The notes under the pieces were generated by a model. It saw nothing but the letters and a program-made list of their open reading frames with translations. It did not search any database and had not been told where the DNA came from. From NCBI GenBank assembly GCA_018238545.1, contig JABCTC010000011.1:28340-92339 (forward strand): a stretch of 64,000 bases of DNA, read 5' to 3'. Within the stretch, counting starts at the first letter, position 1. The number at the start of each line of letters is the position of its first letter. The DNA is from Candidatus Heimdallarchaeota archaeon. Its GTDB lineage: Archaea; Asgardarchaeota; Heimdallarchaeia; Heimdallarchaeales; Heimdallarchaeaceae. The position numbers and the translations under genes are program-made. Shown in pieces: positions 20,675-37,874 of this stretch.

Positions 20675-21229
20675 TTAGGATAATTCAGCTTTAATAGATT
20701 TTTCAATCATCATTCTTGTAATTTCGTAATAGATATCATTGATATTCTGACCATTTTTTGCAGAAACTTCATAATAAGGGAGAGTCTTCAACTTAAATTC
20801 TTTCCTTTTCTTCTCTGCATATTCTAAGATATCTTTCTTTTCGACTTCTCTTTGTTCTTGAACATCAGTTTTATTTCCTATCAAGATAGCTGGTAAAATA
20901 TCTTCACACACATCATATACTTCTTTGAACCACTTATCCAGTTGCTCAAAGGATGTTCTATCTGTTATGTCACAAACAACAAGCACACCATAGGACCCCT
21001 TGTAATATAAAGGTCGTACATACGAAAAACGGTCATGTGATCCTGTATCCCAAGTTTGTAGCTTCACTTTGTTTCCATCAACTTCTATGTCCTTAACAGA
21101 AAATTCTACTCCAATTGTTGGTAGATATCTTTCCCTAAACATACCTGTAGCGAATCTCAAAGTGATAGATGTTTTTCCCACTCCGGGATTTCCAACTATA
21201 ATCGTTTTGAACAGGTAGTCAAAAAGCAC
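20675..21229 (-). CDS. Rab-like small GTPase
   Basis: FDYLFK, GNPGVGKTS, PTIGVEF, KLQTWDT, YYKG, NKTD, EVSAK. Confidence 0.92.
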   Translation of the reverse strand: MLFDYLFKTIIVGNPGVGKTSITLRFATGMFRERYLPTIGVEFSVKDIEVDGNKVKLQTWDTGSHDRFSYVRPLYYKGSYGVLVVCDITDRTSFEQLDKWFKEVYDVCEDILPAILIGNKTDVQEQREVEKKDILEYAEKKRKEFKLKTLPYYEVSAKNGQNINDIYYEITRMMIEKSIKAELS

Positions 21230-28070: not shown

Positions 28071-28958
28071 ATGTCTAACTCCGACAACTCATATATTGAT
28101 GTTTTTGAGAATGTGCAGAAGCTAATTGTGGGTAGGAAAAAAGAACTACGACTAATGATAAATGCTGTTAGCAAAGGGCTGCCAATAATTATTGAAGGTC
28201 CTGTGGGGACAGGTAAGACTGAGATGGCTAAGGTTCTTGCTCAATCTCTTGAAAGACCTTTTGTTAGGGTAGATGGTGACGATAATCTTACCTCAATTAA
28301 GTTGAAAGGTTGGTACGACCCCCCATTAGTTCTAGAGAAGGGTTTTTCCCGCGAAACGTTCATTCCTGGACCTCTAACTCATTCTATGGAAAATGGAGGA
28401 ATATTCTTTTATAATGAAGTTAATAGAGCTCCCTCCGAAACGATAAATGCAGTTCTAACCGCACTAGACGAGAAATTAATTACCATTCCTCAAATTGGAG
28501 AAATTGTCGCTAAAGAAGGATTCATCTCAATTTTCACATATAATCCTGAAGACACGGTGGCTACGAACCCACTGCCTAAAGCATTTTATGATCGATGTAT
28601 TTGGATTCATGTCTCTCATCAAACATTTGAAGAAATGAAAGAAATCGTATTTCTAAGAACAGGTTCCTCCGATAACTTGATGATTTCCATTTCTTGTGAA
28701 ATTGTTCAAGCCACAATTAATCATCCAGAATTGGAAACAAGTTCTACTGTTAGAGGAGCTATTCATTTAGTTGAACTATATGAAGATCTAGAGACAATTG
28801 ATGAACAAACACTAATTGAAAGAGCAATAGCTGTGCACTCTCGAAAAATCAGATGTAAAACAACAAGTAGTAAAACAGAAAGTGAAATTATCGAGGAAAT
28901 TGTTTCGAAAATTCTGTCTAGATATGAAGATGACCGCATACTCCGAAAAAAAGAGTAA
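28071..28958 (+). CDS. MoxR/CoxD-like AAA+ ATPase
   Basis: GPVGTGKT Walker A, FIPGPL, FFYNEVNRA Walker B, TYNP, LP.AFYDR, STVRG. Confidence 0.9.
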   Translation: MSNSDNSYIDVFENVQKLIVGRKKELRLMINAVSKGLPIIIEGPVGTGKTEMAKVLAQSLERPFVRVDGDDNLTSIKLKGWYDPPLVLEKGFSRETFIPGPLTHSMENGGIFFYNEVNRAPSETINAVLTALDEKLITIPQIGEIVAKEGFISIFTYNPEDTVATNPLPKAFYDRCIWIHVSHQTFEEMKEIVFLRTGSSDNLMISISCEIVQATINHPELETSSTVRGAIHLVELYEDLETIDEQTLIERAIAVHSRKIRCKTTSSKTESEIIEEIVSKILSRYEDDRILRKKE

Positions 28959-28996
28959 TTGGTGACCCTACACTCAGTATTGTAGGGGATGAGCCA
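28946..28996 (+). promoter_or_regulatory. Candidate -1 programmed ribosomal frameshift signal
   Basis: A_AAA_AAA in the ATPase frame (28946-52); 7-nt spacer containing the TAA; stem CCCTACA/TGTAGGG; the -1 frame is the vWA frame. Confidence 0.6.
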
Positions 28997-28999
28997 TTC

Positions 29000-29986
29000 T
29001 TGACCTTTCCTTCCAAAAATGCTGGTCGTATGATAATTAACGAAATACAGATGGAATTAGGTAAAAGACAAGAAGATATGGCTAAAATTTTTGAGTTAGC
29101 TGAACAAGCTGCTGAAAATAGAAATTTGGATGCTCTTAGATTAATTGCCACTAATTATCCAACGTTAGCTGCAAAAATCATGAACAACATGGAAATTAGT
29201 GACATAATTTTGGATCAACTTAGAGGGGAAGATTTAATCCAATTATATTCAAGAACTAAGAAACATCTAAAATATCAGCTTCGAAAAAGGATGTTAGATA
29301 GGCTTATACCTTTTATAACAGAACAAGCAAAAGCTATTTACCGGAGAGGAGTATCTGCATCAGTTTCAAAATACATTAATTATGAACCAGGACTTGATTG
29401 GGAACTTGAAATGACTATAGAAAAAATGATGAGTACTGGCAAATTATCACCTGATTATGATAGCATTGTCTCAAAAGAGCCTATTAAGAAGAAGAGGAGC
29501 ATTGTTGTTTGTATCGATAAAAGTTTGAGTGTTTTGCGACTTATTCATCAAATCGTTCTGATGGCATCAGTTTTATCTTTATCAGTCAAGAAAGAAAATT
29601 TTTCTATTATTGCATTTGATTCTGAATCAGCTATTCTGAAACACATGAACAAATACACCGACCCTGATGAACTTGTAGAACTTATTTTGAATATCGAAAG
29701 CGGTGGAAAAACCAATCTCGAAGATGCGCTTAAACTTGCCTTAGACCAACTCAAACAAAGTTCCTCTAGAGAAAAAATTGTCTATATGATAAGTGATCTT
29801 GAGAGAACGATTGGAGGTAACCCTCTTCCTATTATTCAAAATATAGAAGATTTAAGAGTAATTTATGCTCGAACTTATCGCCGGGTTTCTTTTGTAGATG
29901 AAGTTATCTCGCTCTCTAATGTTTCCTTAATAGAATTAAACTTTGACAGTGACTTAGTGGAAATAACTACAAAGTTGATTTCTTAA
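29000..29986 (+). CDS. vWA-domain protein (CoxE-like partner of MoxR ATPase); frame open from 28934
   Basis: MIDAS DKSLS, GGKTNL..AL, MISD; DWELEMTIE precedes the vWA domain. Confidence 0.88.
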   Translation: MTFPSKNAGRMIINEIQMELGKRQEDMAKIFELAEQAAENRNLDALRLIATNYPTLAAKIMNNMEISDIILDQLRGEDLIQLYSRTKKHLKYQLRKRMLDRLIPFITEQAKAIYRRGVSASVSKYINYEPGLDWELEMTIEKMMSTGKLSPDYDSIVSKEPIKKKRSIVVCIDKSLSVLRLIHQIVLMASVLSLSVKKENFSIIAFDSESAILKHMNKYTDPDELVELILNIESGGKTNLEDALKLALDQLKQSSSREKIVYMISDLERTIGGNPLPIIQNIEDLRVIYARTYRRVSFVDEVISLSNVSLIELNFDSDLVEITTKLIS

Positions 29987-31562: not shown

Positions 31563-34500
31563 ATGCATGTTGATATGACCTCCACTCCAGTTGAAAGATT
31601 CCGCGAATTCTATCAAGGTTACCAGGATGAGAATGGGAAGCATATTTACATTGAACAAGTTCAGAAAATGTCTCTTGAGGGGCTTTCTTCAGTAATTCTC
31701 AATTATGATGATCTGTTAAGATACGACCCAGAACTTGCAAGGCTTCTCAGAGAGAATCCTGAGGAAACTATCAAAGCAGCTGATGATGCTTTAGTTGAAG
31801 TTCTTCGTGTTGAAGATCCTATTTATGCTTCAAGTGGAGAAGTGTTTCATGCACGATTTATCAGCATTCCAGATATAGTGGATCTAAGAAGATTAAGATC
31901 TGTTCATCTTGGTCAATTCATCTCTGTTGAAGGGATAATTATCAGACAAAGTGTTGTCAAACCACTTTTAGTTCAAGGTGTATTTCAATGTGCGATATGT
32001 GGAGAGGTGCATTATATCAACCAAGAGGATGGGATGTATGCCGAGCCCTCTAGGTGTGTTAATCCCAATTGTGGGAAGAAAGGACCCTTCAAATTATTAA
32101 CTGAAGAATCAACCTACACCGATTTACAAACTGTAACTGTTCAAGAGAAACCAGAAGAATTACCTCCTGGACAAATCCCAAGATCACTGCCTTCAAGATT
32201 AGTAGGAGATTTAGTAGACTCTGTTAGAGCAGGTGACAGAGCTATAGCTTCAGGTATCCTAAAAATGCGTCCATCTCGTACAGCTCAAGGTAAAAGTAAA
32301 ACAGCGACATTTGATCCATGGTTAGATGTAAACTTCATATCGTCTAAAGATAAAGAATATGAAGACATAGAAATCGACCCTGAAACAGAGGAAGAAATTA
32401 TTAAACTTTCCAAGGATCTTAATATTCATAGAAGGATAGTGCGATCAATAGCACCTTCAATTTATGGGATGGAAACAATAAAGGAAGCACTAGCTTCAGT
32501 GTTGTTTGGAGGAGTATCAAGAGTTGCACCAGATGGGATGAAACAAAGAGGAGATTCAAATGTACTGTTAGTAGGTGATCCTGGAGTCGCAAAGTGTTGT
32601 CATGGTGAGACTGAAATCCTTGAAGTTAACGGTGTGACCACAACTATTGAGAAAATTGTGAATAAACAGCTGGCTATTAATTCTACAAAGATTGACGATG
32701 GCTATTATGCCGAAGGAACCTTACCAATTTTTACATTAAATATGAATGGTAAACTAGAAAAATCAGTTGCAAACATTTTCTGGAAGAGAGAAGCACCAAA
32801 AATCATGTTTAAAATTAAAACAAATTTAGGGAACGAAATTACAGTAACTCCTACACACCCATTTTTTGTAACAGAAAATTGTGAAATAGAGAGCAAGAAA
32901 GCGAAATTATTAAAAGTTGGGGATTTTATTGCATCACCTCTAGGTGTACAAAATGAATCAGAGTCATCGATAGACATCGATATTAAAAAAGGTCTAACAA
33001 CTGCACAAAAGGTAAATATTCCAAAGAAGATTACGCCTGAGCTAGCTAGATTGTTAGGATACCTCTGTGGTGATGGATGTGTATATGAAGCTAATACTTC
33101 TTATGTAACATCTTTCACCAATGCTGATAAAAAGCTGATAGATGACTACATATACTGTTTTGAACAATCATTTAAGAACATTAATTTTTATCAAGAAAAT
33201 AAAATAAACAGTCCTCAAACCAGAGAGATTCGTGCTTATTCCATTGAATTAGGTAGGTTTTTCCAGAAACTAGCACCTTCACTTCTGGAAGGGTCGGACA
33301 ATAAACGAGTTCCGAATGCAATAATGAAGGCACCTAATGAATTATCAAAGGAATTCTTAAAAGGATACTTTGATGCAGATGGAACTGTAAATAAAAAACG
33401 AGCGACGATTTCTGCAACATCTTCCAGTGGGAAATTACTGTCAGATATTCAATTGCTACTTAGAAGACATAATATTGTCTCACAGATAGGTTATACTCAT
33501 TCTAAAAGTCAAACTTCTAAGAAAAAGAAATATCATAGATTGAAAATTACTTCTATTGTCAATTTTAAGAATTTCAAGCATGAAATCGGGTTTAGTTCCA
33601 TTAAAAATGAAAGATTAGATAAAAACTTTTATTCTAACACAAATATTAACGTGGTACCTGGACTAAGCCAATTCCTATTAGAACTACGAGAAGAATATGG
33701 ATTATCTCAATATGAGATGGGAATTACAAGAAGTACATACCAACACTATGAAAAAGGAGATAGAAATCCCTCAAGGGGTAAATTAAGAGAAATTATTCTA
33801 GAAATTAGTAGAATCAAACAAAGTATAAAAATAGAACAACTGCAAAAGTTGATCGATGCGGATATTTTTTGGACAAGAATCGTATCAATCAAAGAAATTA
33901 TTCCAGATTTTGAATGGGTTTATGATTTACAGGTTCCGGAAACACACAACTTTGTTGCTAATGGTATATTTGTTCACAATAGCCAAATGTTGCAATATAT
34001 AGCGCGATTAGCTCCTAGAGGATTACTAACCTCTGGAAAGGCAAGCTCGGCCGCAGGACTTACCGCAGCTGTCGTTCGTGATCCCGATTCAGGCGAGTTT
34101 ACTTTAGAAGCTGGTGCGTTAGTATTAGCAGATAGGGGTGTTTGTCTTATTGATGAATTCGATAAGATGAACCCAGTCGACCGTTCTGCGATACATGAGG
34201 CGATGGAGCAACATACGATCAGTATTGCGAAAGCAGGGATAGTTGCTACGCTTAATGCTCGAACCTCTATCATTGCCGCTGCTAATCCTCGTTTTGGTAG
34301 GTATGAAGACTCTCGTCCTCCCAATGAAAATATCAATCTTCCCCCTACTATTCTATCTCGTTTCGATTTGATTTTTGTTATCAAAGATATACCTGACGAA
34401 GATAAAGACAAAAAAATGGCTAGACACATATTAGAATTGAGAAGAGGGCATATTACTGAAGCTGTAGAACCTGTTATTCCAATGGAGTTACTTCGAAAAT

Positions 34501-35015
34501 ATATCAGTTATGCAAAACAACAAGTTGAGCCAGCTTTAACTGATGAAGCTATGGAAAGAATTGAAGCCTATTATTTAGATTTAAGGAAAACTTCAGATGA
34601 GAATACAGCTATAGCTATTACACCCAGATATCTTGAAGCAATTATTCGTTTATCTGAATCTCAAGCAAGAATGGCTTTGAAAGATGAAGTTACAATTGAT
34701 CATGTTGAAGCTGCTATAAATCTTCTAAGATCTTCTCTAGAACAGGTAGGAAAAGATCCAGTTACAGGTAAAGTTGATATTGACTTCTTACTTTCAGGAA
34801 CAACTAAGGCTACTAGATCAAAAATGCAAACTGTTATTGATTTAATTAAAGAGGAATCTCGAAAAGGAACCGTTGACATAGTGCCAGTTAGGAAAATCAA
34901 AGAGCTTGCCAAAGAGAATAATATCGAAGAAGATTTTGTAGATAAAGTTATAGAACAACTTCGAAGTAATGGTGAGATATATTCACCAAGAGATGGTTAC
35001 GTTAAGTTAGCATAA
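31563..35015 (+). CDS. mcm: Replicative helicase MCM, intein-containing
   Basis: C4 zinc finger, QEKPE, SIAPSIYG, GDPGVAK|SQ, AGLTAAV, IDEFDKM, HEAMEQ, SRFD; 688-aa extein. Confidence 0.97.
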   Translation: MHVDMTSTPVERFREFYQGYQDENGKHIYIEQVQKMSLEGLSSVILNYDDLLRYDPELARLLRENPEETIKAADDALVEVLRVEDPIYASSGEVFHARFISIPDIVDLRRLRSVHLGQFISVEGIIIRQSVVKPLLVQGVFQCAICGEVHYINQEDGMYAEPSRCVNPNCGKKGPFKLLTEESTYTDLQTVTVQEKPEELPPGQIPRSLPSRLVGDLVDSVRAGDRAIASGILKMRPSRTAQGKSKTATFDPWLDVNFISSKDKEYEDIEIDPETEEEIIKLSKDLNIHRRIVRSIAPSIYGMETIKEALASVLFGGVSRVAPDGMKQRGDSNVLLVGDPGVAKCCHGETEILEVNGVTTTIEKIVNKQLAINSTKIDDGYYAEGTLPIFTLNMNGKLEKSVANIFWKREAPKIMFKIKTNLGNEITVTPTHPFFVTENCEIESKKAKLLKVGDFIASPLGVQNESESSIDIDIKKGLTTAQKVNIPKKITPELARLLGYLCGDGCVYEANTSYVTSFTNADKKLIDDYIYCFEQSFKNINFYQENKINSPQTREIRAYSIELGRFFQKLAPSLLEGSDNKRVPNAIMKAPNELSKEFLKGYFDADGTVNKKRATISATSSSGKLLSDIQLLLRRHNIVSQIGYTHSKSQTSKKKKYHRLKITSIVNFKNFKHEIGFSSIKNERLDKNFYSNTNINVVPGLSQFLLELREEYGLSQYEMGITRSTYQHYEKGDRNPSRGKLREIILEISRIKQSIKIEQLQKLIDADIFWTRIVSIKEIIPDFEWVYDLQVPETHNFVANGIFVHNSQMLQYIARLAPRGLLTSGKASSAAGLTAAVVRDPDSGEFTLEAGALVLADRGVCLIDEFDKMNPVDRSAIHEAMEQHTISIAKAGIVATLNARTSIIAAANPRFGRYEDSRPPNENINLPPTILSRFDLIFVIKDIPDEDKDKKMARHILELRRGHITEAVEPVIPMELLRKYISYAKQQVEPALTDEAMERIEAYYLDLRKTSDENTAIAITPRYLEAIIRLSESQARMALKDEVTIDHVEAAINLLRSSLEQVGKDPVTGKVDIDFLLSGTTKATRSKMQTVIDLIKEESRKGTVDIVPVRKIKELAKENNIEEDFVDKVIEQLRSNGEIYSPRDGYVKLA
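32595..33980 (+). mobile_element. Intein (462 aa) with LAGLIDADG endonuclease and XRE-type HTH, inserted in the MCM Walker A
   Basis: Starts CCHGETEI; VTPTHPF; LLGYLCGDG, FLKGYFDADG; ends VYDLQVPETHNFVANGIFVHN, followed by Ser. Confidence 0.95.
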
Positions 35016-35026
35016 TTTTGTGATGT

Positions 35027-37276
35027 TTGATGAATATTGCAGATCTTCCCATCCCGCAAATTGTGAAAGATAAATTAGCGAAGGAAGGAATAATTTCTCT
35101 CTACCCACCTCAAGTAGAGGCCATAAACAAGAAACTACTTGATGGGAATAATCTTGTTGTTGCTATACCTACAGCTTCTGGTAAAACACTTTTAGCAATT
35201 TTAGCAAGTTTGAAAGTAATCGCTGATAAAGGGTTAAAAACGCTATATCTTTCACCTCTGAGAGCTCTTGCTTATGAGAAATTTATTGAATTCAAAAACT
35301 ATCTAGACTTGTTAGGTAAAAGAACTATTCTACTAACTGGTGACTATGATGGAGAGGATAGTAATGCAAAATATGCTGATGTGATCATTGCAACAAATGA
35401 GAAGATTGATTCCGCAATTCGACATCAAGCTAAGTGGATTAGTAAGATTGGTTTGGTTGTAGCTGATGAGGTTCATCTCATTAATGACTCATCTAGAGGT
35501 CCTACATTAGAAGTTGTTTTAGCGCAACTCAGAAAATTAACAAAAGCACAGATTTTAGCTCTTAGTGCGACAATAAGAAATGCTGATGAAATCGCTAGAT
35601 GGTTAGAAGCGGAACTCGTTTCTAGCGATTGGCGACCGGTTAAATTGAATGAAGGGGTTCTCAATGGCAATCAAATAATCTATGAAAATCACACAGCTTC
35701 TATACCATTAATCTATAAAAACAGTTTCAATAATCTAATCACACATATATTAAAAAAGAAAAAACAAGCCTTGGTTTTTGTTACAACAAGAAATATGGCA
35801 GAATCAACAGCAAGGAATCTAATTAACAACGTGAAAAAAACACTTACAAGAGAGGAACAAGAACAATTGCTTTTAGCAGCAAAAAAAATAACTACCTCAG
35901 GAGAACAAACTAAACAAGCCAAAAACCTTGCTCAATTAGTTCAAAATGGGGTCTCATTCCATCATGCTGGATTAAGTCCAACCCAAAGAAGAATAATAGA
36001 GGAGAATTTCAAAAAAGGTTTCATCAAAATCCTTAGTGCCACTCCAACTCTTGCTGCGGGAATCAATTTGCCAGCTCGATATGTTATAATAAAAAGCATC
36101 TATCGATATGATGTTACATTGGGTAGTTATCCCATTCCTGTTTTAGAATTTAAACAACAATCTGGAAGAGCTGGAAGGCCTCAATATGATAAAGAAGGAG
36201 ATGCTATAGTTATTGCAAAGAATGATTACGATGCTCAAAACCTTCTAGAGATGTATATTACAGCTGATACTGAAGATATAGATTCTAAAATAGCTGCAGA
36301 ACCAGCACTACGGCGTATAGTTTTAGGTCAGATTGCGACTGATAACACTCAATCTTTAGACGAATTACACGAGTTCTTCGGCCAGACTTTTTATGGCTAT
36401 CAACAAGATCCAACAAGTTTAAGCACAATTCTCCGAAAAGTCATCAAATTTTTAAGAGAAGAAAGTCTTATTACAAAAGATCCAGATTACTTAATTGCTA
36501 CAAATTTTGGTAAACGCGTTAGTCAACTATATATTGACCCTCTTAGTGGAATAATTATCAGGCAAGGGTTGATAAGAGCAAAACCAATGGCTAAAGGTTT
36601 ACTCACAGACATCAGTTTTCTTCATTTAGTCTGTTCAACACCAGATGTTAGATTTACAACTGTCAAAAAAGATGACCAATTCAGATTAATTAATTATGTA
36701 AGTGATCACGAAGATGAATTTCTATTAGACCTTCCCACAACATCTTTTGAATTAGAATTATTTATGAGTCAATTAAAAACTGCATTAATTCTTAAAGATT
36801 GGATTGCTGAAACACCAGAGGATACGATGTTAGATAGGTATAAAATTGGTAGTGGTGACATATATTCAGTCGTAGCAAATTCAGAATGGTTGTTATATGC
36901 AACTGCTGAAATAGCTAAATTGTTGGGTCATAAGGAGATAGCAGAACGTACAAATATCCTGCACAACAGGATTGTAAACGGAATAAAAGGAGAGTTAGTT
37001 GACCTCGTAATGATTCCAGGTATAGGTAGAGTAAGAGCAAGAATGCTTTTTGATAAGGGTTACAAAACAAGGGAAATATTGAAGCAGACTAAACCCTCAG
37101 ACATAATGAAACTCTCAGGGTTTGGAAAAGAACTAGTCAAATCTATTTATTCTCATCTGTTGGGAGAAAAGTTTGTCGAAAGAGAGATTGGTCCAACAAG
37201 TGAAGAAGAGAAAACTGATTCAGACATTTTGAATTCAATCCCACAGAAAAGTTTAGATGATTTTTTCTCCAAATGA
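35027..37276 (+). CDS. hel308: Hel308/Hjm Ski2-like DNA helicase
   Basis: LYPPQ, PTASGKT, DEVH, SAT, FHHAGL, TPTLAAGINLP, GRAGRP, C-terminal HhH. Confidence 0.93.
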   Translation: MMNIADLPIPQIVKDKLAKEGIISLYPPQVEAINKKLLDGNNLVVAIPTASGKTLLAILASLKVIADKGLKTLYLSPLRALAYEKFIEFKNYLDLLGKRTILLTGDYDGEDSNAKYADVIIATNEKIDSAIRHQAKWISKIGLVVADEVHLINDSSRGPTLEVVLAQLRKLTKAQILALSATIRNADEIARWLEAELVSSDWRPVKLNEGVLNGNQIIYENHTASIPLIYKNSFNNLITHILKKKKQALVFVTTRNMAESTARNLINNVKKTLTREEQEQLLLAAKKITTSGEQTKQAKNLAQLVQNGVSFHHAGLSPTQRRIIEENFKKGFIKILSATPTLAAGINLPARYVIIKSIYRYDVTLGSYPIPVLEFKQQSGRAGRPQYDKEGDAIVIAKNDYDAQNLLEMYITADTEDIDSKIAAEPALRRIVLGQIATDNTQSLDELHEFFGQTFYGYQQDPTSLSTILRKVIKFLREESLITKDPDYLIATNFGKRVSQLYIDPLSGIIIRQGLIRAKPMAKGLLTDISFLHLVCSTPDVRFTTVKKDDQFRLINYVSDHEDEFLLDLPTTSFELELFMSQLKTALILKDWIAETPEDTMLDRYKIGSGDIYSVVANSEWLLYATAEIAKLLGHKEIAERTNILHNRIVNGIKGELVDLVMIPGIGRVRARMLFDKGYKTREILKQTKPSDIMKLSGFGKELVKSIYSHLLGEKFVEREIGPTSEEEKTDSDILNSIPQKSLDDFFSK

Positions 37277-37319
37277 GCAATACTTTAAAAATATTAGAAA
37301 TACTGTCGAGTTGGTAATA

Positions 37320-37874
37320 GTGAGTTCAGAAGAATTAGTTTTGAAAGAGCTTGAAAGAATTCAATTTGATTTCGAAAATAAAGACATTTCTGTCAAATGT
37401 TTGAAGAATCTTGAAGAATTCGACATGGGAGACAGGAAAATTAAGTTGCTAAAAGGAGTTAGAATAAAGGTTCCCTTCTGGCTTGCAATTTTTCTGGAAA
37501 AAGATGGTTATATTGAGTTTGAAGAAAAGAATGAAATGAATTTTCCTATTTTATATAAATTGTCAAAGAAAGAAGGAGATAACATTGCCCTTCAAGAGCT
37601 AAGTTCCTATTTTTATATTGCTATGAGGAAGACCTACGAGGAGTTTAAAGATAAGAAGAAATCCATCCCTTATCGTCAAATTGAAGCAATTGATATGAAA
37701 TTAAGAGAACTTATGACTATGAGGCTTTCCAAAATAATAAAAATTGCTGAAAAAGGGAGAAATATTACCACTAAAACACGTAATTTCACACCAGAAGAGC
37801 GATGGTTGTTCGAATTTGTTTCTGAAGCAATTGAAAAATGGAAGGCTATAGTTAAAGTTTCAGATATAGAATAA
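37320..37874 (+). CDS. GINS subunit (Gins23 / Psf2-Psf3-like)
   Basis: VPFWLAIFL B-domain followed by helical A-domain (R..KI, NFTPEE); near mcm; start GTG 37320 inferred. Confidence 0.8.
   Translation: MSSEELVLKELERIQFDFENKDISVKCLKNLEEFDMGDRKIKLLKGVRIKVPFWLAIFLEKDGYIEFEEKNEMNFPILYKLSKKEGDNIALQELSSYFYIAMRKTYEEFKDKKKSIPYRQIEAIDMKLRELMTMRLSKIIKIAEKGRNITTKTRNFTPEERWLFEFVSEAIEKWKAIVKVSDIE

Follow-up and report, generated by a model that had tools for sequence, protein, structure and literature searches.

A candidate programmed -1 frameshift, followed by a predicted kink-turn, linking a MoxR-type ATPase to its vWA partner in Asgard archaea

The window, by which we mean the whole 64,000-nucleotide stretch of Candidatus Heimdallarchaeota archaeon DNA that was analysed, encodes a MoxR-type AAA+ module and, adjacent to it, a vWA domain with the MIDAS DKSLS...T...D, which together constitute a MoxR AAA+/vWA pair. 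The features of the locus are as follows.

28071..28958, + strand: AAA+ ATPase of the MoxR family, 0-frame product, 295 aa (AAA_5, E 2e-21)
28197-28220, + strand: Walker A motif GPVGTGKT of the ATPase
28404-28418, + strand: variant Walker B motif FFYNE of the ATPase
28946..28952, + strand: slippery heptamer A_AAA_AAA, invariant in 25/25 orthologues
28952..29986, + strand: -1 frame that a slip would enter, with linker, helical domain and vWA domain, 344 codons (VWA_2, E 8e-12)
28953..28960, + strand: 8-nt spacer that includes the ATPase stop TAA (28956-58), of the same length in 25/25 orthologues
28961..28965, + strand: non-bulged strand GG-U-GA (5n, 4n, 3n, 2n, 1n) of the predicted kink-turn
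28966..28987, + strand: hairpin of the canonical (C) stem, 7 bp (28966-72 with 28981-87) and an 8-nt loop; all 7 pairs change on both sides
28988..28995, + strand: bulged strand of the predicted kink-turn, with bulge GAU (28988-90), G1b and A2b (28991-92), G at 3b and CC at 4b-5b
29030..29032, + strand: ATG, Met321 of the fusion and a possible separate start, ATG in 20/25 orthologues
29516..29530, + strand: MIDAS motif DKSLS (DxSxS) of the vWA domain, with the downstream Thr and Asp present

The ATPase half gave Pfam matches above cut-off to AAA_5 and AAA_3 and contains both an arginine finger and sensor II; the second half matched VWA_2, VWA and VWA_CoxE, with VWA_2 and VWA_CoxE above cut-off. 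The 3' end of the ATPase gene reads CGA AAA AAA GAG TAA (28944-58), placing the A7 run in X_XXY_YYZ phase one codon before the stop, and the vWA frame is the -1 frame, open only from 28934 (preceded by TGA). A slip would therefore read ...RKK-RVIGD... and yield a fusion of 638 aa, compared with 295 aa for the unshifted product. An original prediction, made from the letters of this DNA, had proposed a -1 frameshift here; the in-phase run at 28946-52, the point from which the vWA frame is open and both product lengths were all confirmed. The flanking genes encode MFS transporters and a YdjM protein.

Orthologues were taken from 25 species-level genomes of the family (60-100% identity), which are related to each other, such that counts across them overstate independence. 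The A_AAA_AAA heptamer and the -1 phase of the vWA frame were retained in 25/25, with the heptamer one or two codons ahead of the stop; this conservation was among the checks that the original prediction had proposed. Synonymous change was absent from the heptamer throughout (25/25), the base preceding its Lys codons being A in 25/25, and among 288 invariant degenerate columns only three lacked such change, namely the two heptamer Lys codons and one Tyr. All 18 other conserved Lys columns varied, and AAA usage in this genome is 73%. Between the heptamer and Met321, stops occurred in 0/25 orthologues in the -1 frame, 25/25 in the +1 frame and 23/25 in the 0 frame; upstream of the heptamer, the -1 frame was interrupted in 25/25. 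Across the alignment, linker indels comprised whole codons, and variability over codons 310-320 (0.42/0.28/0.59 by position) was highest at the third position, a coding pattern within the linker. Linker residues GD and (D/N)EP were conserved, and are not independent evidence because they largely coincide with the kink-turn bases described below. Both halves are under purifying selection. In contigs from four independent studies, which are 95-99% alike, the A7 run is spanned without an indel. At 29027 and 29029, just before ATG 29030, all four compared runs read AGA where the window reads CGT (synonymous Arg).

The original prediction cautioned that A7 runs arise by chance in this genome, and as regards this genome the caution was justified. 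A7/T7 runs occur at 0.5 per kb, an in-phase heptamer lies at the end of 110 of 2809 long ORFs, and six of these also have a long -1 ORF, against 8.7 expected; within this genome alone, the frameshift layout is no commoner than chance. Only two of the six have no start codon near the stop, both of them MoxR-vWA loci. It is conservation across orthologues that rules out chance.

The second of these loci is a paralogue (L031:2946-3017, G000:C68, minus strand) that ends GAU UUU UUC UAG with its vWA domain in -1, the slip site U_UUU_UUC standing directly before UAG in 19/19 members of its family. Together with its orthologues it uses U_UUU_UUC/A/U, G_GGU_UUU and A_AAU_UUU in the same phase. Phylogenetic analysis placed the gene studied here in clade A (support 97/99) and the paralogue in clade B (99/99), with a separate clade C. 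Among 160 genomes of the phylum, 99 had a member of the MoxR-vWA family, and of 108 sampled loci in -1 phase, 87 carry a full heptamer (against an in-phase heptamer background of 3.9%), 19 have only U_UUU or A_AAA in phase and two have neither, these two exceptions having an ordinary start. The slip sites differ by lineage and comprise A_AAA_AAA/C/U, U_UUU_UUC/A/U, G_GGU_UUU, A_AAU_UUU/C and G_GAU_UUU. Two Bacillota orthologues have A9/A10 runs, also in -1 phase. In clade C, loci L063-L066 have A9-A11 runs in -1 phase, and their closest relatives, L033 and L034, are in-frame fusions.

Downstream of the slip site, the segment 28958-29000 folds into a hairpin with an MFE of -14.6 kcal/mol (z = -2.4). 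Both stems noted in the original prediction are present and real; what it overlooked is that the outer stem, the GA pairs and the GAU bulge together resemble a kink-turn, in which the 4b-5b CC pair with 28962-61. In a standard kink-turn, tandem G-A pairs come after a bulge of 3 nt (PMC6298567), and this arrangement was found in 25/25 clade-A loci, 8 nt behind the heptamer. All 25 folded junctions share the same asymmetric loop (GG-U-GA, a C stem of 3-8 bp, a GAU/AAU bulge, GA and R-CC), with G2n, A1n, the L2 A, the L3 U, G1b, A2b and two outer G-C pairs invariant in clade A and the bulge codon always RAU, never RAC. Across the 25 junctions, 90.4% of cells were paired, against at most 58% in slid controls, and 7/7 pairs of the C stem changed on both sides. 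The motif keeps one codon phase within the acidic linker. A covariance model of the junction matched only this locus in the genome and did not reach clade B, no Rfam match was found at the junction, and a promoter/terminator scan found none there.

Across the phylum, a scan that demanded an RAU bulge placed the motif at 60 of the 108 junctions, with 13 Asgard families represented; the background was 1.0% for other windows of these genes and 0.4% for shuffles. In families f2, f3 and f4, where it follows the clade-B slip site, it was 91% paired, with 6/8 pairs changing on both sides, and in family f13 its polarity is reversed, the bulged strand coming first. The remaining 48 loci have a plain hairpin or weak structure, including all of f5 (plain GC hairpins) and the paralogue of this genome, whose structure is weak and variable. 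The motif accompanies 16/19 tetramer-only slip sites compared with 40/80 full heptamers, in lineages that are not independent. On these grounds we hold it very probable that the kink-turn fold is real. The original prediction had offered an H-type pseudoknot as an alternative stimulator; its helix is possible in this sequence, and we rejected it, as it was only 52.9% paired across orthologues (one pair in 3/23) and would occupy the same invariant bases as the kink-turn, leaving the kink-turn hairpin as the candidate stimulator. A box C/D guide sRNA was likewise rejected, as Rfam gave no match and the bulged strand is not followed by a conserved D box.

Natural versions of the gene without a frame change, which the original prediction had suggested looking for, were also recovered: there were 42 in-frame AAA-vWA fusions, of which the best three align to residues 11-638 of the predicted fusion at 35-37%. 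In genome G030 and a Kariarchaeaceae genome, the clade-A locus instead consists of a short intact ATPase gene and then a fused gene with decayed Walker motifs (GSGKR, QE), the pattern of chlI + chlD. The fused Kariarchaeaceae-type sequence forms a long branch whose exact place in the tree is unsure; this two-gene replacement suggests that both products are needed. At the end of the clade-B ATPase in seven further loci (L041, L046, L048, L052, L054 and L055 of f6, and L204 of f21), the vWA domain lies in the +1 frame. A conserved UUU UUU CGG precedes it in the f6 loci (CGA in L204), and the +1 frame reads FFGP/FFEP. These loci suggest a +1 shift of the UUU_CGN type; among the Arg codons of the genome studied here, CGG is used least (2.4%). 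An ATG follows the +1 site in 5/6 f6 loci and is absent in L041 and L204.

A vWA protein might also be started separately. Across the 25 orthologues, the position of Met321 is ATG in 20, TTG in one and without a start codon in four, and two orthologues have no start codon at all within 200 nt. The ATG retained in 20/25, together with a Met near the corresponding position of most clade-B loci, means that a free vWA protein may be produced as well. ATG 29030 would be a serious rival start and a better one than TTG 29000, which the original prediction had named, with GGGGAUGA as its ribosome-binding site, while missing the ATG; the TTG occurs in only 4/25 orthologues and was rejected. If the locus were two separate genes, reinitiation or leaderless-type coupling would start the vWA protein at ATG 29030 (or TTG 29000), and the kink-turn would be an L7Ae-bound 5'-leader element tuning the start or stabilising the mRNA, as in archaeal l7ae leaders. 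The retained position of the ATG favours such an arrangement, as do the known ability of L7Ae to repress translation from kink-turns in leaders as well as coding regions (PMC5539422, PMC6298567) and the resemblance of GGUGA and GGGGAUGA to GGAGGUGA, the Shine-Dalgarno read from the 16S end in this genome. However, these Shine-Dalgarno-like strands lie ~40 and ~65 nt before ATG 29030, no conserved Shine-Dalgarno was found ahead of that ATG in the 25 orthologues, and four orthologues have no start at Met321. Two separate genes would also leave unexplained the invariant in-phase heptamer and its exchange for other slippery sites, the fixed -1 phase and the stop-free linker of whole codons, and we judge them very unlikely.

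Slippage by RNA polymerase, which would add one A in the A7 run so that A8 mRNAs encode the fusion in frame, is consistent with the A-runs of clades A and C, the A9-A11 runs of some relatives and Bacillota, and a relation between poly-A length and efficiency in chelatase cassettes (PMC3711429), and an A7 run with a hairpin could in principle operate during transcription. The A7 run, however, falls below the An, n>7 range quoted in the same paper, paralogues with four U (G_GGU_UUU, A_AAU_UUU, G_GAU_UUU) keep the same layout, and codon phase with a 3' structure at 5-8 nt is a ribosomal signature. Because slip sites differ by lineage, ribosomal re-pairing fits better, and the chance that polymerase slippage accounts for the locus is slimmer still. 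A sequencing or assembly error, or a recently broken fused gene, might be suspected from the homopolymer run and the in-frame fusions of relatives, yet is scarcely credible when identical A7 and stop recur in 25 species-level genomes, the contigs of four studies are gapless and both halves are under purifying selection. The frameshift could also be real and the kink-turn likeness incidental, with an ordinary hairpin flanked by acidic-linker codons (GAN ... GAU GAN) and no protein bound. In the -1 frame, the GA and GAUGA elements almost invariably coincide with boundaries of Glu/Asp codons, and the 48/108 loci with plain or weak structure point the same way. We nevertheless consider this unlikely, since the C stem ends exactly at GA and a 3-nt RAU bulge in 25/25 clade-A loci and in another 12 families whose stems and peptides differ, covariation is seen in both stems, the clade-A bulge is RAU and never RAC, f13 has the reversed polarity, and background is 1.0% and 0.4%.

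We therefore favour, with a probability of about 0.88, a programmed -1 ribosomal frameshift through which one recoded gene would produce a free ATPase and an ATPase-vWA fusion, a reading built on the layout, conservation, covariation and natural fusions that we observed. A ribosome on A_AAA_AAA would hold tRNA-Lys in its P and A sites while its mRNA entry faced the kink-turn hairpin, 8 nt further along. In most cases translation would end two codons on, giving the 295-aa ATPase, and a fraction of ribosomes would slip back one base to give the 638-aa ATPase-linker-vWA protein; both the slip itself and its rate are what we infer. The two products most likely co-assemble because both share the oligomerising AAA+ module, and the result would be a NorQ/NorD-like remodelling ring in which a minority of subunits bear vWA/MIDAS, such that the shift may set the ratio of vWA subunits, as the original prediction supposed.

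The nearest precedent is fs-chlD (Antonov et al. 2013, PMC3711429; Kuznetsov et al. 2022, PMC9227772), where one gene likewise gives AAA+-only and AAA+-vWA subunits through an A/T-rich slip site with 3' structure, mostly by -1 and sometimes by +1 shifts, and has relatives with in-frame fusions and two-gene chlI + chlD versions. An A_AAA_AAA cassette from a chelatase gene gave a 10% shift in E. coli (PMC3711429). The present locus differs in its AAA_5/NorQ-CbbQ-like ATPase, the lack of CobN/ChlH, a ChlD score of 26 bits against 500, and the putative kink-turn stimulator, the last of these not being reported for fs-chlD in the available text of PMC3711429 and PMC9227772. Very few cases of archaeal chromosomal frameshifting are described, namely fucA1 and presumed chelatase genes (PMC8211752). 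The -1 frameshift of Sulfolobus fucA1 also combines an A-rich heptamer with a stem-loop, but occurs in few strains and gives a short product with no known role (PMC8211752), whereas the layout seen here is phylum-wide and both products look functional. A conserved Asgard family of this kind provides dozens of natural cassettes with different slip sites and both kink-turn polarities, and its +1-phase versions, in-frame fusions and two-gene replacement make the mechanism testable by comparison. On this reading, gene callers truncate and split these AAA-vWA proteins throughout the Asgard phylum.

In cardiovirus and arterivirus frameshifting, the ribosome is redirected by a complex of protein and RNA that lies downstream of the decoding site; in SECIS-SBP2, recoding is driven by an L7Ae-family domain bound to a kink-turn. 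We know of no cellular archaeal case of protein-stimulated recoding of this kind. A stimulatory role for L7Ae at the present locus would parallel both systems in its downstream protein-RNA complex, and would differ from the former, which use viral proteins and longer spacers, and from the latter, which redefines a stop codon from the 3' UTR. An L7Ae gene is encoded in this genome (G000:C94). Its leader (L151:1815-1855, minus strand) has a kink-turn-like hairpin, AAUGA ... GA, over the Shine-Dalgarno GAGGUGA, like known autoregulation.

Archaeal coding sequences contain kink-turns bound by L7Ae (PMC5539422). Those described in mRNAs (Daume et al. 2017, PMC5539422; Huang et al. 2019, PMC6298567) have a GAU bulge, tandem G-A/A-G pairs and a hairpin of either polarity, all of which recur here, as does their protein-requiring pair class (-1b:-1n = G:C, 3b:3n = A:U or G:U). 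In clade A, -1b:-1n is mostly G:C and 3b:3n is A:U or G:U; a G:C pair at -1 with a Watson-Crick pair at 3 blocks folding in metal ions alone (PMC6298567), and by these rules the clade-A kink-turns should need protein to fold. Most likely, the kink-turn is bound by L7Ae. Known L7Ae kink-turns in mRNA occlude the ribosome-binding site or repress translation, whereas the motif here lies inside a coding region, 5-8 nt behind the slip site. That L7Ae bound there stimulates the shift as a roadblock is a tentative proposal, to which we give slightly less than even odds; the protein-requiring class of the clade-A kink-turns and the excess of kink-turns at weak tetramer-only sites are hints in its direction. 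Free L7Ae, as a gauge of ribosome and guide-RNP supply, would then set the ratio of ATPase to ATPase-vWA subunits.

A literature search in which subscription journals were thinly covered found no account of a frameshift or kink-turn of this kind in Asgard archaea. One gene giving two subunits is known from chlD; the kink-turn as a frameshift stimulator is the part that was not found in any paper. If L7Ae does stimulate the shift, the archaea most closely related to eukaryotes would use a phylum-wide, protein-stimulated frameshift with a cellular recoding signal made of kink-turn and L7Ae. Should L7Ae act in this way, it would represent a new kind of frameshift stimulator, would tie chaperone composition to an RNA-binding protein and would offer a ready part for protein-switchable recoding.

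A structural model of a fused orthologue (P0003, pLDDT 86) comprises the AAA+ module, a short flexible linker, a helical domain and the vWA domain, with best structural matches to NorQ (TM 0.86 by target), CbbQ (0.80) and the NorD vWA chain. The original prediction called the system CoxD/CoxE-like; judged by modelled fold, the ATPase appears closest to NorQ/CbbQ and is not shown to be CoxD/CoxE, and the neighbouring MFS and YdjM genes carry no information on the client. In NorQ hexamers, client remodelling and metal insertion rely on the NorD vWA/MIDAS (PMC13036017). As in the NorQ/NorD and CbbQ/CbbO systems (PMC13036017), the MIDAS DxSxS-T-D is intact here, but in those systems the partners are separate genes, whereas the vWA domain here would be covalently joined to the ATPase subunit by recoding, and Walker B has NE rather than DE. 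This Walker B, FFYNE, with Asn for the usual Asp, runs across clades A and B and is found in Bacillota too. Membership among ChlD/CobT chelatase subunits was rejected: TIGR02031 gave 26 bits against 499.55, and TIGR02442 was far below cut-off for fused relatives. CobN/ChlH was not found in this genome (92% complete) or in 45/46 genomes of the order, including one single-contig genome. Because ChlD scores are far below cut-off and CobN is missing, the protein is not a chelatase subunit, and would resemble fs-chlD at the gene level only. Non-Asgard clade-A relatives, split or fused (L073, L074, L225, L226, L227), lie in cobalamin-dependent methyltransferase/mutase clusters with MtmB, MttB, corrinoid protein, RACo, MtaA-like, MutL/GlmL, DUF2284 and DUF1638 genes. 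These neighbourhoods give a lead to a corrinoid or other metalloprotein as the possible client.

Elsewhere in the window, MCM, Hel308-like helicase and GINS genes stand in a row at 31563-37874, the MCM (1150 aa) carrying a C-type intein-like insert with homing-endonuclease-like and HTH-like region, and 20675-21229 on the minus strand encodes a Rab-like small GTPase, one of the eukaryotic-signature proteins typical of Asgard archaea.
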